Shown: positions 2,790 to 39,483 of the stretch, one piece after another
Numbering within the stretch: the stretch's first letter is position 1
Layout: each line of letters starts with the position of its first letter
DNA from: a virus
Lineage: Duplodnaviria; Caudoviricetes
Strand: one strand, 5' to 3'
DNA: 56,124 bases
Virus record (IMG/VR): IMGVR_UViG_3300010399_000044
Span: 1-56,124 of that record
Made by a program: the position numbers and the translations under genes
The notes under the pieces: generated by a model
Seen by the model: only the letters and a program-made list of their open reading frames with translations
The model's database searches: none
Told to the model about the DNA's origin: nothing

Positions 2790-3380
2790 GTGGAATCCAG
2801 GCTTTTCGACCCCCTGAGTCCGCCTGAGTGGATTGACCCACTCTGGTGGGTCGATCAGCCCCATGTGAACCACATCGACAACCGTGTGCACCAGGCTCGC
2901 TTGATCTCGGCTGCTGAAACAGCAATGGCGCTATCCGACCAACTCGGTGGTGTTGCTATCTGTGATATCGGCTCGTGTGATGGCGGACTGCTTGAACTGA
3001 TCCGACCCGAGTACACAGCCTTCGGGTACGACGTAATCCAGATCAGCATCAAGTACGGGCGTGAAGTTCGCGGGGTGGATCTGCGTTACGGCAACGTGAC
3101 AGGAAACCCCAAGCTCGAACTTGCCCCTGTCCTTGTGTGCACCGAGATGCTGGAACACCTCAAGGACCCTCACGGGTTCCTGAAGGAGCTACGACGTGCT
3201 AGTATCGAGTACGCCATCTTCTCGTCTCCGCATTCGGAGACAGCCCAGTACCACGAGTGGAATCACGCATGGGCCTGGGATCGAGAAGGATACGCCAATA
3301 TGATCACAGACGCGGGGTGGGAGATCGTATCCCATATCGATGTCGAGTGGTCCCAACAGATTGTTGCGAAGAACTCATGA
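2790..3380 (+). CDS. class I SAM-dependent methyltransferase
   Basis: ICDIGSCDGGLL, GYD, CTEMLEHLKDP, FSSP motifs. Confidence 0.85.
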   Translation: MESRLFDPLSPPEWIDPLWWVDQPHVNHIDNRVHQARLISAAETAMALSDQLGGVAICDIGSCDGGLLELIRPEYTAFGYDVIQISIKYGREVRGVDLRYGNVTGNPKLELAPVLVCTEMLEHLKDPHGFLKELRRASIEYAIFSSPHSETAQYHEWNHAWAWDREGYANMITDAGWEIVSHIDVEWSQQIVAKNS

Positions 3381-3442
3381 GCAACATCCAGTAAGCCGTA
3401 ATACCCAGTTCGGAGCCAGTCTGGGAATCAAAACGGGCACAG

Positions 3443-3514
3443 ACCGTGCGCGCAGTGCGCAGGGAGTCTCATAAGCTCCTTTTTGTCGTGGTGCAAATCC
3501 ACGGTGCGGTACCA
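3443..3514 (+). tRNA. tRNA-Met(CAT), atypical with a minimal D-arm
   Basis: acceptor ACCGTGC/GTGCGGT-A-CCA; anticodon arm GGAGT-CTCATAA-GCTCC; T arm CGTGG-TGCAAAT-CCACG; D arm only GCGC-AGT-GCGC. Confidence 0.7.
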
Positions 3515-3598
3515 GATCGAGAGGGCACTACAGGACCCCTCCGGAGCGCGAACCCAACCTGTAGGACGGGTTCTACAAATCCGGCTTGTCTCGATCCA
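3515..3598 (+). ncRNA. candidate structured ncRNA with complementary loops
   Basis: closing stem GATCGAGA/TCTCGATC; inner stems AGGG/CCCT, CCGGA/TCCGG, GAACCC/GGGTTC; loops CTACAGG and CCTGTAG are complementary. Confidence 0.55.
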
Positions 3599-3599
3599 C

Positions 3600-3674
3600 G
3601 TGTGGTTAGCTCAGTCTGGTCAGAGCGCCTCTCTGATGAAGAGGAAGTCATCGGTTCAAATCCCTTACCACACA
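3600..3674 (+). tRNA. tRNA-Ile(GAT), weak T-stem
   Basis: GTGTGGT/ACCACAC; TAGCTCAG; CCTCT-CTGATGA-AGAGG; GGTTCAAATCC. Confidence 0.8.
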
Positions 3675-3675
3675 C

Positions 3676-3749
3676 GCCCCTCTAGTCCAATTGGCAGAGG
3701 CGCTCGGCTCAGACCCGAGATGATCGCAGTTCGAATCTGCGGAGGGGTA
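3676..3749 (+). tRNA. tRNA-Leu(CAG), short variable loop
   Basis: GCCCCTC/GAGGGGT; CTCGG-CTCAGAC-CCGAG; GTTCGAATC. Confidence 0.85.
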
Positions 3750-3769
3750 CAACCAACGATTGGAAGAGG

Positions 3770-3859
3770 ATGAATTTTCAAGACGGTGCCCATATTTGTT
3801 TGTGTGACAGTCCCCGCAACCCCAACTGCCAGAAGTGCGGGATGCCCTGCCACTGTTAG
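3770..3859 (+). CDS. Cys-rich microprotein, 29 aa (MNFQDGAHICLCDSPRNPNCQKCGMPCHC)
   Basis: purine-rich GGAAGAGG upstream; fills a tRNA spacer; 6 Cys. Confidence 0.6.
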   Translation: MNFQDGAHICLCDSPRNPNCQKCGMPCHC

Positions 3860-3865
3860 TACAAT

Positions 3866-3941
3866 CGCTCATTAGCTCAGTCCGGAGAGAGCACCAGGCT
3901 ACGAACCTGGGTTTGCGGAGGTTCAAATCCTTCATGGGCGG
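3866..3941 (+). tRNA. tRNA-Arg(ACG)
   Basis: CGCTCAT/ATGGGCG; CCAGG-CTACGAA-CCTGG; GGTTCAAATCC. Confidence 0.9.
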
Positions 3942-4027
3942 CATGACTTTAGTTGGCAGTAAACTCGGGGATGAGGAACTGTCTATGGTCCGGCGATGCC
4001 GTTCGCGGTGTATCGAGTGGCCTGTAA

Positions 4028-4099
4028 TCCAGCATAACTCAACGGCAGAGTTCCGACCTGTTAAGTCGGCGGTTCTTGGTTCGAATCCAAGTGTTGGAG
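4028..4099 (+). tRNA. tRNA-Asn(GTT)
   Basis: TCCAGCA/TGTTGGA; CCGAC-CTGTTAA-GTCGG; GGTTCGAATCC. Confidence 0.92.
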
Positions 4100-4101
4100 C
4101 A

Positions 4102-4178
4102 GGAGGGATGCCGAAGTGGACGAGGCACCGGTTTGTGAAACCGGTATCAGTGGGTTCGAGTCCCACCCCTACCGACCA
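4102..4178 (+). tRNA. tRNA-His(GTG), imperfect acceptor stem
   Basis: CCGGT-TTGTGAA-ACCGG; GTGGG-TTCGAGT-CCCAC; acceptor GGAGGG/CCCTACC has a bulge. Confidence 0.75.
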
Positions 4179-4193
4179 CGTCAAGGAGGATAG

Positions 4194-4265
4194 ATGAAGT
4201 ACGAAGTATGCATGGGTGGCTGTGGTGGTACGACACAGACCTGTACGTGTGAAGGAAAGCGATAA
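4194..4265 (+). CDS. Cys-rich microprotein, 23 aa (MKYEVCMGGCGGTTQTCTCEGKR)
   Basis: perfect AAGGAGG RBS; 4 Cys. Confidence 0.65.
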   Translation: MKYEVCMGGCGGTTQTCTCEGKR

Positions 4266-4267
4266 GC

Positions 4268-4348
4268 ATGGCAGACCCAGCTTGCCCGAGGTGTCACGGT
4301 ACCGGCTTCTTTTGGATGCTGGGCTCGTGGCGTCCATGTGGGTGTTAA
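4268..4348 (+). CDS. Cys-rich microprotein, 26 aa (MADPACPRCHGTGFFWMLGSWRPCGC)
   Basis: starts 2 nt after the previous stop; GAAGGAAAG upstream; CxxCxGxG...CGC. Confidence 0.65.
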   Translation: MADPACPRCHGTGFFWMLGSWRPCGC

Positions 4349-4355
4349 TCCCAAC

Positions 4356-4431
4356 CGTCCATTAGCTCAAGTGGTAGAGCAGGAGCTTCTTAAGCTCTCG
4401 GTTCCAGGTTCAAGTCCTGGATGGATGACCA
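4356..4431 (+). tRNA. tRNA-Lys(CTT)
   Basis: CGTCCAT/ATGGATG-A-CCA; GGAGC-TTCTTAA-GCTCT; GGTTCAAGTCC. Confidence 0.92.
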
Positions 4432-4499
4432 CACAGCACGGTGCTGTTACCAGCCGGAACGTTTGATTCCGGGGGTCCGTGTGCGAGGAATACAGGCAA

Positions 4500-4574
4500 T
4501 GCTGATTGGTGTAACTGGCAACACGGGTGGCTCTGAACCACCTGTTCTAGGTTCGAATCCTAGGTCGGCAGCCA
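4500..4574 (+). tRNA. tRNA-Gln(CTG)
   Basis: TGCTGAT/GTCGGCA-G-CCA; GGTGG-CTCTGAA-CCACC; GGTTCGAATCC. Confidence 0.92.
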
Positions 4575-4575
4575 A

Positions 4576-4651
4576 GGGGACATAGTTTAGGTGAGCAAAA
4601 CAGCGGTCTCCAAAACCGCAGTGCGAGGTGCAAGCCCTCGTGGCCCCGCCA
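4576..4651 (+). tRNA. tRNA-Trp(CCA)
   Basis: GCGGT-CTCCAAA-ACCGC; CGAGG-TGCAAGC-CCTCG; encoded CCA end. Confidence 0.85.
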
Positions 4652-4652
4652 A

Positions 4653-4726
4653 GCCGTTGTAGCTCAATATGGTAGAGCACCCGCCTTGTAAGCGGGTGGT
4701 TCGGGGTTCAAGTCCTCGTTGCGGCT
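4653..4726 (+). tRNA. tRNA-Thr(TGT)
   Basis: TAGCTCAA..GGTAGAGC; CCCGC-CTTGTAA-GCGGG; GGTTCAAGTCC. Confidence 0.88.
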
Positions 4727-4785
4727 CTTGTTCAGAAAAACCTCGTGTTCAAGTTTTCTGAACAGCACCACAAAATGAACACGCT

Positions 4786-4857
4786 GTGGGTGTAGCTCAG
4801 GGGTAGAGTGCCTCATTTGGGATGAGGAAGTCGTGGGTTCGAAACCCGCCTCCCGCA
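4786..4857 (+). tRNA. tRNA-Pro(TGG)
   Basis: TAGCTCAG..GGTAGAG; CCTCA-TTTGGGA-TGAGG; GGTTCGAAACC. Confidence 0.88.
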
Positions 4858-4880
4858 CGTTTGACAAGGGGGTGATGTAA

Positions 4881-4940
4881 GTGCGGCAGTCTTTTTGCCC
4901 GGTCTGTGGTAAAGACACAGACCTTAACTGTGGTTGTTAG
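4881..4940 (+). CDS. Cys-rich microprotein, 19 aa (MRQSFCPVCGKDTDLNCGC)
   Basis: AAGGGGGTGA RBS before GTG; CxxC...CGC-stop like its neighbours. Confidence 0.6.
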   Translation: MRQSFCPVCGKDTDLNCGC

Positions 4941-4975
4941 TTTCAGTCATGACTAAACTCTTAGAACGGATCATC

Positions 4976-6448
4976 ATGGTTCTCCCAGCCTCTGTGCCTA
5001 CCGGCACCGTGACCGGCACCTGGTACACCCCCGCAGGGGCGTTGGCTGTCGGCACCATCGTGTTCCTCCTTCTGGAGTCGATCGAGATCCCCGACGACGC
5101 AGACGGGGTCGTGCTGCCTGTCAGGACCGTTGTAGACGTCCCCGCAGGCCAGTTGAACCAAACCCTCCCAGCAGGCACCTATCAGGTCTCCATGAGGCTC
5201 TCAGAGCTGTATAGGGCAACCAAGGTCGTGGCGATCACCGCAGGGGAAGCCCTGAACCTCCCCGATGCTGTAGGGATGCTTCTTCCAGACCCTGATCTGT
5301 ATGATCCGGTGCGCAGTGTCGATGGTTATTTCCCCGACGCCTATGGGAATATCGATCTCCCAGGCGGAGGCGGGGGCGGAGTTACGGACCACGGCGAACT
5401 CACAGGACTTGCAGACGACGACCACAGCCAGTATTTGACCACTACACGTGGTGATACTCGGTATTACACCAAGTCACAGTCGGATACGAGCCTCGCAGGC
5501 AAGGAGAATACCGGAGTAGCAGCAGGTCTTCTGGCGGCTCACGTCGCAGCAGCAGATCCTCATACCCAGTATCTCAAGGAAGCCGATGCAGCTCCGGTTG
5601 CTACGGCAGGTACTTATGCGAGTCTTACAGGTAAGCCAACCATTCCAGCACTGAGCGATGTTGCCGCACTTGTTGTGGGGCAGTCTAACTCAGCCGGTAC
5701 AGGAACAGCCTCTTCCAGGGAAGACCACACCCATAATGGTGTTCCTCAGTCTTTGCTGACCACCAAGGGCGATCTTGTTGTTGCTACCGCGAACAACACG
5801 GCTTCTCGGGTTGGCGTGGGTTCCAACGATCAGGTCCTTACTGCCGATTCCAGCACCGCAAGTGGTGTGAAGTGGGCAACCCCTTCGGGGGGTTCAGCCC
5901 CATTGTCGGAATCCGACTTCAACGGCTTCGCCGCGTGGAGTGGTGATCCTCTGTATTGGATGACCCGATCCGGGGTTGGTAATGGTGACGCTTCTGTTGT
6001 GCGTCTACCAGTCCAGGCAGGAAAGGCCATCAACAAGCTGTGGATTGCTGTGTCAACCGCCGGTTCTTATTCCGCCAACGGTGTTCCCAACCAGATGGGT
6101 ATCTGGGACGACACAGGAGCTTTGCTATCGCTGACTCCTGATGACCCGACATTGTACACATCCAATGGGTGGCGTTCGGGAACCCTGGTCACTCCGGTGG
6201 CTGCGGGTGCAGCCCGATTCTGCTATGTGGGTTTCATCCTGGGTGGTATGACCGGAGTCCAGTTGTTCTACCCCTCGTCCGCGAGTCTGGTAGGGGCAAC
6301 AGCCGAAGGAAACATCATCAACGGCGGTAACGAAACCAAGAGGCGCGCAGCCTACTTGACTTCGCAGACCTCCCTACCAAGTTCATTCACGCCATCAAGT
6401 GTTGGCACCGTAACCGCGTATATTCCGCTGGTTGCCATTTCAAGCTAA
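4976..6448 (+). CDS. minor tail/fibre-like virion protein
   Basis: VRSVDG, poly-G linker, DHGELTGLADDDHSQY, AHVAAADPHTQYL, TTKGDL fibre motifs; start chosen among 4934/4949/4976. Confidence 0.7.
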   Translation: MVLPASVPTGTVTGTWYTPAGALAVGTIVFLLLESIEIPDDADGVVLPVRTVVDVPAGQLNQTLPAGTYQVSMRLSELYRATKVVAITAGEALNLPDAVGMLLPDPDLYDPVRSVDGYFPDAYGNIDLPGGGGGGVTDHGELTGLADDDHSQYLTTTRGDTRYYTKSQSDTSLAGKENTGVAAGLLAAHVAAADPHTQYLKEADAAPVATAGTYASLTGKPTIPALSDVAALVVGQSNSAGTGTASSREDHTHNGVPQSLLTTKGDLVVATANNTASRVGVGSNDQVLTADSSTASGVKWATPSGGSAPLSESDFNGFAAWSGDPLYWMTRSGVGNGDASVVRLPVQAGKAINKLWIAVSTAGSYSANGVPNQMGIWDDTGALLSLTPDDPTLYTSNGWRSGTLVTPVAAGAARFCYVGFILGGMTGVQLFYPSSASLVGATAEGNIINGGNETKRRAAYLTSQTSLPSSFTPSSVGTVTAYIPLVAISS

Positions 6449-38553: not shown

Positions 38554-39483
38554 TTAGAAATCACCGTCTGCTACCTGAAGTACTGTCAACCCAATGGAAC
38601 GGTAAGCCGCAACAACCCTGTTGCGGTCGTCGTATGCCCGCTTGATGTTCCAGTTACCCCTGATGTGCTTGTCGAAGAGTTCCAGCTTCACGACCGCATC
38701 GTTGCGGGTGTCGCCTTCCGAACGCATGAATAGTCCTGCAATAGGAACCTTGACTTCCTGGTACAACCACTCCTCGGACACCCCGAAGAACTTGTGACTA
38801 CGACCAGACCCGAACACGATCTTGTTTCCGAGGTCGTAGTACTCGTGCCTCACGATGTCAATGATGGGGAGGTTGGGCTTGTCCAGGTGATACCTGGAGG
38901 TGTCGTACGGGCCTCTCACACCATCGTGGAGAGCCACAGTCCCATCGATGTCCACCAGCACCGCGTCTGGCAGGCTGGTGTCCGGAACGTACAACTCATG
39001 CTGTGGGATCGTGAACTTCCCCCGCACAGCAGGCTCAACCGGAGTCTTGCCTTGGAGTGGGGTGACGTAGCGCTGGAACATGTTCCGGATTACATCTTCC
39101 GGAACGGGGTGTTCGCGCTTGGAGTTCCTTTCCAAGCAGGTTTCCAGCGGAACCCAGGTGAAATCTACCTGGCACCACTCCACACCAAGACGCTCTGCGA
39201 TCAAGGCCAGAGGCCTACGGTACGCAGTCTTCAGGTTGCAGTCGTGAACAACAACCCGAAGGCCACGACTCAAAGCCTTGTCGATCATCGAGTGTTCCAG
39301 TGCCGTGATCTCGTTCTCCTGATCCGAGGTCAGACCCAGCTTGGTACCGTACAGGGTCAGCCTCAGGTCATCCCTGGAGATGGCCACAGCCTCACCAGGA
39401 GGAAGACTCGCTACGATCTCTCGTGCGAAGGTGGTCTTCCCAGAACCGGGAAGACCCACACAGATGTACAGCTCCCCGCTCAC
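38554..39483 (-). CDS. polynucleotide kinase/3'-phosphatase (T4 PseT-like)
   Basis: GLPGSGKTT, RDD.R, DIDGT HAD motif, SGR, DDR. Confidence 0.95.
   Translation of the reverse strand: MSGELYICVGLPGSGKTTFAREIVASLPPGEAVAISRDDLRLTLYGTKLGLTSDQENEITALEHSMIDKALSRGLRVVVHDCNLKTAYRRPLALIAERLGVEWCQVDFTWVPLETCLERNSKREHPVPEDVIRNMFQRYVTPLQGKTPVEPAVRGKFTIPQHELYVPDTSLPDAVLVDIDGTVALHDGVRGPYDTSRYHLDKPNLPIIDIVRHEYYDLGNKIVFGSGRSHKFFGVSEEWLYQEVKVPIAGLFMRSEGDTRNDAVVKLELFDKHIRGNWNIKRAYDDRNRVVAAYRSIGLTVLQVADGDF

Follow-up and report, generated by a model that had tools for sequence, protein, structure and literature searches.

A helix-closed, tRNA-sized cassette with complementary loops in a phage tRNA array, tentatively read as a non-tRNA RNA gene

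Introduction

What is the segment that fills the slot between a tRNA-Met-like gene and the first canonical tRNA in the array of this phage? The window, meaning the whole stretch of DNA analysed here, is a complete IMG/VR virus record of 56,124 nt with a GC content of about 55%. It carries a tailed-phage gene set (terminase large subunit, portal, tape measure, endolysins and a family-A DNA polymerase), with a portal about 50% identical to Mycobacterium phage portals. Ten canonical tRNA genes, recognised by both ARAGORN and Rfam, lie on the + strand at 3600-4858. An earlier note, made from the letters of the sequence, had described a structured non-tRNA RNA at the head of this array and had proposed that it is excised by tRNA processing. 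We follow up this proposal by examining the anatomy of the element, its distribution among related phages and its relation to known RNA classes.

Results

The element abuts tRNA-type genes on both sides

The element and its surroundings comprise the following features, with positions given in the window.

2790-3380: class-I methyltransferase ORF, 5' of the tRNA array
3443-3514 (+): tRNA-Met(CAT)-like gene, D arm minimal, T loop TGCAAAT, sub-threshold for default callers
3515-3596 (+): conserved 82-nt core, identical in all five carrier records, with variable flanks starting immediately outside
3597-3599 (+): variable 3' spacer, CAC here and TTCT in another haplotype, outside the conserved unit
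3600-3675 (+): tRNA-Ile(GAT), first canonical tRNA of the ten-gene array, called by ARAGORN and Rfam
4934-6448: unassigned 504-aa ORF, 3' of the tRNA array
38554-39483 (-): polynucleotide kinase-phosphatase (Pnkp), elsewhere in the phage genome
39778-40965 (-): T4 Rnl1-type RNA ligase, elsewhere in the phage genome

The gene immediately upstream had been taken for a tRNA-Met, which holds in part. Its acceptor stem is good, an anticodon arm with CAT and a T arm are both present, and ARAGORN calls it at relaxed settings (-ps80, and in -mt mode). However, its D arm is vestigial (a stem of 3-4 bp with a 3-nt loop), neither ARAGORN nor Rfam reports it at default thresholds, and in other carriers the CCA at its end is CTA or CGA. 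The tRNA-Met-like gene is kept in relatives, the version in contig L003 differing in the acceptor stem and D region.

The element is separated from this gene by 0 nt and from tRNA-Ile by 3 nt, as closely packed as the tRNAs of the array are among themselves. This spacing makes it plausible that the element would be excised by tRNA processing. A promoter and terminator scan returned neither feature flanking the 82-nt element. Elsewhere in the genome, Pnkp and Rnl1 constitute the classical T4-type tRNA repair pair; Rnl1 is also found in relatives G001, G002 and G004, with an in-frame TAA in the G001 copy.

Two further observations concern the array itself. Just 5' of the tRNA-Met-like gene, at 3404-3442 (+), a hairpin CCCAG...CTGGG is followed by AATCAAAACGGG; this region is nearly invariant in five relatives, the spacer around the hairpin is variable, and the hairpin may be a promoter or processing signal for the array. 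Three tiny Cys-rich ORFs of 29, 23 and 26 aa are scattered among the tRNAs (3770-3859, 4194-4265 and 4268-4348, all +). Purine-rich stretches lie 5' of the first two, and the first (3770-3859) is also present in L002 and L004.

The element is a three-way junction with complementary loops

At the level of individual helices, the element is composed as follows.

3515-3522 (+): 5' strand of the closing helix H1, GATCGAGA, making 8 Watson-Crick pairs with 3589-3596 (pair probability 0.77-0.97)
3589-3596 (+): 3' strand of H1, TCTCGATC, paired with 3515-3522
3523-3538 (+): hairpin H2, GGG (3523-3525)/CCC (3536-3538) with a 10-nt loop, flush with H1 (pair probability ~0.61)
3528-3534 (+): loop-1 heptamer CTACAGG, exact complement of 3558-3564
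3541-3584 (+): arm H3 (pair probability 0.86-0.96)
3541-3545/3580-3584 (+): proximal helix of H3, CCGGA/TCCGG
3546-3549/3574-3579 (+): internal loop of H3, GCGC/TACAAA, asymmetric 4/6
3550-3555/3568-3573 (+): distal helix of H3, GAACCC/GGGTTC, with a 12-nt loop at 3556-3567
3558-3564 (+): loop-2 heptamer CCTGTAG, complement of loop 1

Every helix described in the earlier note is present, including the closing helix, the first hairpin with its CTACAGG loop and the two-part second arm carrying CCTGTAG. Its helix list needs one correction, since A3522 had been used both in the closing helix and in the AGGG strand of hairpin 1. H2 pairs either as GGG/CCC or in the alternative register AGGG/CCCT, with a loop of 10-11 nt depending on the register. 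The minimum free energy (MFE) fold of 3515-3598 is exactly the three-way junction that had been proposed, and the two loops are indeed exact reverse complements over 7 nt. The 22 helix pairs and 7 loop-loop pairs are mutually compatible, giving 29 pairs with no mismatch, and a junction combined with a kissing helix is the sole arrangement that uses all of them simultaneously.

The MFE of 3515-3598 is -32.2 kcal/mol (z = -2.55), and 3 of 200 shuffled sequences fold as well. When the two loops were shuffled, a complement of at least 7 nt arose in 85 of 200,000 trials (P ~4e-4); the duplex formed by the two loop segments is worth -11.7 kcal/mol. As a genome control, we folded all 50 stretches of 70-95 nt that are closed by a perfect 8-bp helix, on both strands (100 strand-folds). 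The element alone among the 50 has a loop-loop complement longer than 4 nt. Its folding energy is ordinary in the same set, ranking 33rd of 100 for the + strand and 16th of 100 for the - strand. The loop-loop complement is therefore non-random, and the element is distinctive by this complement and by its position, without unusual stability.

Other properties of the fold are less specific. The minus-strand RNA folds better (-34.8 kcal/mol), and a nested alternative in which the heptamers form an ordinary helix is only 2.2 kcal/mol worse. All pairs of the element are Watson-Crick, with no G-U, so the structure cannot tell an RNA strand from a palindrome acting at the DNA level.

The element is a cassette restricted to one phage lineage

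About 15 related phage contigs were recovered via the 504-aa ORF and the methyltransferase ORF. The element is found in the window and in four other records, namely metagenome contig L071 and three contigs of IMG/VR; L072, another metagenome contig, equals the contig of L007 in length and is identical to it in local sequence, and was taken as the same assembly and not counted separately. The 82-nt core is 100% identical in all five carrier records and is framed by three flank haplotypes: ACCA/core/CAC, ACTA/core/CAC and ACGA/core/TTCT. What is conserved corresponds exactly to the body closed by the helix, 3515-3596. The terminal CCA (3596-3598), which had been regarded as part of the element, is thus not a conserved feature, other copies reading core followed by TTCT. 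Similarly, the element sits in a tRNA slot as the earlier note had it, but the conserved body is 82 nt rather than about 84 nt and stops 3 nt short of tRNA-Ile.

The closest relatives, L002 and L003 (97% identity in the 504-aa ORF), as well as L004 (87%), are without the element. In all three, the tRNA-Met-like gene is joined directly to the next module, the L002 junction reading ...GGTACCA-A-GTGTGG (tRNA-Ile), and in more distant relatives tRNA-His directly follows tRNA-Met. The boundaries of presence and absence coincide with the ends of H1. Variation among carriers likewise starts right outside the core, so that flank variation begins at the ends of the closing helix as it does at tRNA bodies in these arrays. 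The element is accordingly a lineage-restricted cassette, confined to one soil-phage lineage.

Searches for the element returned this lineage and no other. A blastn search against 50,697 phage records matched 18 records, all solely on the tRNA-Leu part of the query. A covariance model (R1) run over 93 sources matched identical copies alone, the best other matches having E values of ~0.3-1.5. Patterns with either the loops or the stems fixed recovered the same three contigs and no others from IMG/VR; in JGI metagenomes the loops-fixed pattern found two contigs, both of this phage lineage, and in one genome each of 185,579 prokaryote species the two patterns gave 0 matches. Further relatives collected via the upstream methyltransferase and via a neighbouring array motif contained no homologue of the element. 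In four public sequencing runs, one soil DNA contig spans 3453-3688 with 2 mismatches, the positions of which are not given; among the differences listed, none falls inside the element. Another two run contigs break off within the element, and the source of one is labelled RNA-Seq but rated 'probably DNA'; one of the four runs looks like the element-less haplotype. No RNA run is listed as covering the element.

These arrays have a mosaic make-up: in a comparison of the window with L007, identity is 100% for tRNA-Arg and for tRNA-Asn, and 84%, 82% and 66% for tRNA-Ile, tRNA-Trp and tRNA-Pro, respectively. Compared with G002, the 89-nt perfect run that holds the element is merely the 31st longest of 212 runs of at least 40 nt, so 100% identity is unexceptional for these mosaic genomes. 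Because all copies are identical, they carry no covariation signal on the kissing helix, for or against. Between the carriers and one non-carrier, about 20 segments co-vary with whether the element is present, a number too large for a partner to be singled out.

A cassette of this kind could act as DNA. The element might be an inverted-repeat cassette, either MITE-like or a product of recombination, the palindromes of which function at the DNA level. Its precise presence or absence agrees with such an origin, as do its 8-bp terminal inverted repeats (GATCGAGA/TCTCGATC), its strand-symmetric pairing by Watson-Crick pairs alone and its identity in genomes that are otherwise about 87% alike. Yet there is a single copy per genome, always in the same slot, rather than dispersed copies; no target-site duplication is seen at the junctions; and 0 copies were found in another context, whether in prokaryote genomes or in viral and metagenome contigs, where the matches belong to the same phage lineage only. 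MITEs usually form a single long hairpin, from which a branched junction with complementary loops differs. We consider a DNA-level cassette distinctly unlikely.

The element matches no known RNA family

At the gathering threshold, Rfam reports tRNAs as the sole matches in the window and none on the element. At E<=10, the sole overlap with the element is SmY on the minus strand (E 1.5), which we regard as noise. The earlier note had called for this search and had allowed that a match to an existing family would remove the novelty of the element; with no family match even at this permissive cutoff, that objection does not apply. Neither the phi29 pRNA model (Phage_pRNA) nor the SRP models containing an Alu domain match at E<=10, so the comparison with pRNA and the SRP Alu domain that had been offered stands as an analogy of topology and not as family membership. 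GOLLD and ROOL are also without a match, in the window at the gathering threshold as in the element region at E<=10. A literature search on kissing or structured RNAs in phage tRNA arrays led to GOLLD/ROOL, pRNA and theta ribozymes and to nothing resembling the element, and a scan for complementarity with the rest of the tRNA array found nothing involving the element loops. A coding segment was rejected on two counts: the element has no ATG, and the 85-nt presence/absence indel is not a multiple of 3.

The claim that the element is not a tRNA is borne out. It lacks a cloverleaf, a 7-nt anticodon loop and a T loop, and it receives no call from RF00005 or from ARAGORN at default settings. Relaxed ARAGORN (-ps80, -mt) produces mutually overlapping junk calls over the element and no credible tRNA, and a tandem dimer of the element, submitted to ARAGORN, reveals no permuted tRNA. 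Likeness to tRNAs was further assessed by alignment. When the element was aligned locally to the 130 distinct tRNAs of all the arrays collected, 72 of 200 shuffles reached its score. Gapped alignments to Met/His/Phe regions of distant relatives are marginal, being equalled by 6, 73 and 3 of 300 shuffles, and GGTTC-TAC-AAATCC at 3569-3582 resembles a T-loop box with a 3-nt insertion. Overall the likeness does not reach significance, and descent of the element from a tRNA is no more than possible.

These comparisons bear on whether the element does anything at all. It could be a functionless leftover of cassette shuffling, that is a remodelled tRNA relic or a spacer that folds by chance. This would be in keeping with its narrow lineage, with closest relatives that do without it, with mosaic arrays in which modules are gained and lost and with its ordinary folding energy; the weak local likeness to 3' parts of tRNAs in two of the three gapped comparisons and the T-loop-like box interrupted by TAC point the same way. 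On the other hand, 29 perfect pairs and a 7-nt loop complement of the significance given above are unexpected for a decaying relic, the third gapped comparison and the survey of 130 tRNAs show likeness no greater than chance, and neither relaxed ARAGORN nor the dimer test uncovers a tRNA, permuted or otherwise. A functionless leftover is, in our judgement, unlikely, if still to be taken seriously.

The position of G3515 directly after the tRNA-Met-like gene's 3' end raises another alternative, a new class of self-cleaving ribozyme that would cut at its own 5' end to generate the tRNA-Met-like RNA's 3' end, as an analogue of theta ribozymes. According to a passage in PMC10879173, theta ribozymes sit at most 1 nt from tRNA ends, and the element shares this feature of context alone; G3515 likewise lies inside the range of 1-5 nt from a tRNA 3' end in which the cleavage-site G of such ribozymes is placed. 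An HDV-like or theta order of helices, which in the earlier note's view does not fit, is impossible on inspection: nucleotides 1-7 are complementary solely to 3590-3596 at the 3' terminus, so that no P1 can be made from the first 6-7 nt before the 3' strand of P2. HDV, hatchet, twister, pistol and hammerhead models have no match on the element at E<=10. Moreover, other carriers have CTA or CGA in place of the CCA upstream, and in relatives this tRNA-like gene is matured with no element present. We therefore see only a very slight chance that it is such a ribozyme.

Other non-tRNA modules occur in these arrays

The arrays hold further structured segments that are not tRNAs. Between tRNA-Arg and tRNA-Asn, the window holds a conserved motif at 3988-4021 (+), GUCCRGCGAUG-[hairpin]-RUAUCGAGUGGC; it occurs also in L002, L003, L004, L007, L011, L013, L014, L093, L094, L099, L107, L113 and L115, following tRNA-Ser in L093. 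Its hairpin spans 13-38 nt and varies in sequence and length, the reading frame is not kept between copies, and G-U pairs polarise it to the + strand. The pattern has 30 matches, about a dozen of them in long ORFs without tRNAs and apparently due to chance. This motif has no Rfam match. It may be a better-supported new RNA motif than the 82-nt element.

A minihelix-like module of about 45 nt, GGCGCGRAGGGUURAAGYCCC...UGCGCC, is located inside the tRNA arrays of relatives (L002 3602-3622, L003 1961-1981, L007 3674-3694, L013 2508-2528 and others), and none was found in the window when up to 3 mismatches were allowed. This is a further cassette, likewise not a tRNA, that is gained and lost. In the slot of the element and tRNA-Ile, L003 (1138-1244) and L004 (2834-2905) carry different stretches of about 70-100 nt with no ARAGORN call; a long terminal helix, with 8 pairs in the MFE fold, closes the one in L003.

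Discussion

The observation that started this analysis is real and statistically supported, and the reading as a processed structured RNA is reasonable, but it rests on one sequence. The explanation that we tentatively favour is that the element is a discrete, tRNA-sized, non-tRNA RNA gene occupying a slot of the array, released by tRNA processing and locked by a kissing interaction. This reading is suggested by the fold statistics, by 29 compatible pairs, by tRNA-like spacing and by boundaries that fall at the ends of H1. It also draws on the other structured non-tRNA modules in these arrays and on the precedents of T4 RNA C/D and GOLLD/ROOL. We count against it the ordinary folding energy and modest z-score of -2.55, an identity between copies that is unexceptional and leaves no variation, pairs that are strand-symmetric, the better fold of the minus strand, the alternative fold within 2.2 kcal/mol and the existence of close relatives without the element.

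We envisage the following course of events, in which transcription, release, kissing fold and function are all predicted. The tRNA array would be transcribed as a single precursor containing the element. Two events would release the element, RNase P cleavage at the tRNA-Ile 5' end and processing of the tRNA-Met-like gene at its 3' end; the element would then be trimmed back to the 8-bp H1, sealing both ends. H1 would stack on H2 to give 11 continuous pairs, and the asymmetric GCGC/TACAAA internal loop would allow the distal part of H3 to bend back and bring the heptamers together in a 7-bp kissing helix. The end product would be a compact, exonuclease-resistant, pseudoknotted three-way junction of tRNA size. 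Because the same phage encodes Pnkp and Rnl1 and carries an aberrant tRNA-Met-like gene, our best guess is that such an RNA may act in a tRNA-centred conflict with the host, as a tRNA-shaped decoy or binding partner.

The same RNA could instead pair its loops between molecules, with head-to-tail contacts leading to dimers, rings or chains, in principle a miniature relative of the ROOL/GOLLD nanocages and of phi29 pRNA. Within one molecule, each loop complements the other over 7 nt, and the geometry that we infer would favour contacts in trans: H2 has only 3-4 bp, loop 2 stands off from the junction by about 11 bp and an internal loop, and an intramolecular contact would require a sharp bend. 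Self-assembly by kissing loops is described for phage RNAs near tRNA islands in a passage of PMC12286853, and self-association of pRNA by kissing in a part of PMC4201828. However, the asymmetric 4/6 internal loop could supply the bend, the element has no Rfam match to pRNA, ROOL or GOLLD, and this phage packages its DNA by a TerL/portal system and not by a phi29-type motor. Pairing between molecules is distinctly improbable. The more specific proposal that the 82-nt RNA self-assembles, loop 1 of one molecule kissing loop 2 of the next to build closed rings or filaments, is slightly less probable again. If true, it would make the element the smallest natural case of an RNA-only quaternary assembly of the kind recently seen for ROOL and GOLLD, sharing with them a niche in phage tRNA arrays immediately after a tRNA-Met-type gene.

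Under the preferred reading of an RNA gene in a tRNA slot, what the element would add is a very small and cleanly defined example, with an architecture readable from the sequence as one junction and one 7-bp loop-loop contact. Such a small defined element would be an easy object for the study of passenger excision from tRNA precursors, tRNA-shape mimicry and self-association. Its value is limited by its narrow distribution in one soil-phage lineage and by its invariant copies. We know of no established function for any of the known non-tRNA RNAs of phage tRNA arrays (T4 RNA C/D, GOLLD and ROOL).

Several known systems share individual traits with the element. A tRNA resembles it in slot position, in near-tRNA size and in a closing helix of 7-8 bp, and the predicted 11-bp coaxial stack of H1 and H2 recalls the acceptor/T-arm stack. 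Theta ribozymes likewise follow a phage tRNA immediately on its 3' side, most frequently tRNA-Met; in a passage of PMC10879173, more than 70% adjoin tRNA-Met, suppressor tRNA or tRNA-Leu. They differ in folding as a nested double pseudoknot with P1 made from the first nucleotides (same source, in part), whereas nucleotides 1-7 of the element pair with the 3' terminus. The phi29 pRNA, as portrayed in a part of PMC4201828, also combines a three-way junction with two mutually complementary loops. It is set apart by the lack of an Rfam match and by the usual tailed-phage TerL and portal of the window phage. In addition, the loop complement of pRNA is shorter and the pRNA itself is longer.

The closest parallels are those of setting. 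T4 RNA C and RNA D, also called species 1 and 2 stable RNAs, are small non-tRNA RNAs placed directly against tRNA genes in a phage tRNA cluster, the T4 annotation putting rnaD at 1 nt from tRNA-Arg and rnaC another 6 nt along, and the element fits this descriptive class as a non-tRNA segment abutting tRNAs on the same strand. They are longer (119 and 139 nt versus 82 nt), they come from another phage lineage, and their MFE folds differ, that of rnaC having a canonical T-arm-like hairpin of which the element is devoid. No Rfam family was found for T4 RNA C/D and none is shared with the element; their 'biological roles unknown' is the wording of a passage in PMC3014915. GOLLD and ROOL, phage or prophage RNAs often near tRNA islands, depend on kissing loops as a central part of their architecture, and GOLLD env-38 lies downstream of a Met-tRNA (PMC12286853, in part). 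The likeness to the element is one of setting and kissing loops; the difference is one of length, 82 nt here against several hundred nt for GOLLD and ROOL and often more than 800 nt for GOLLD (same source, in part), accompanied by the absence of an Rfam match. Taken together, the element matches no described family and belongs with the non-tRNA passenger RNAs of phage tRNA clusters, resembling T4 RNA C/D and GOLLD/ROOL not in sequence but in setting.
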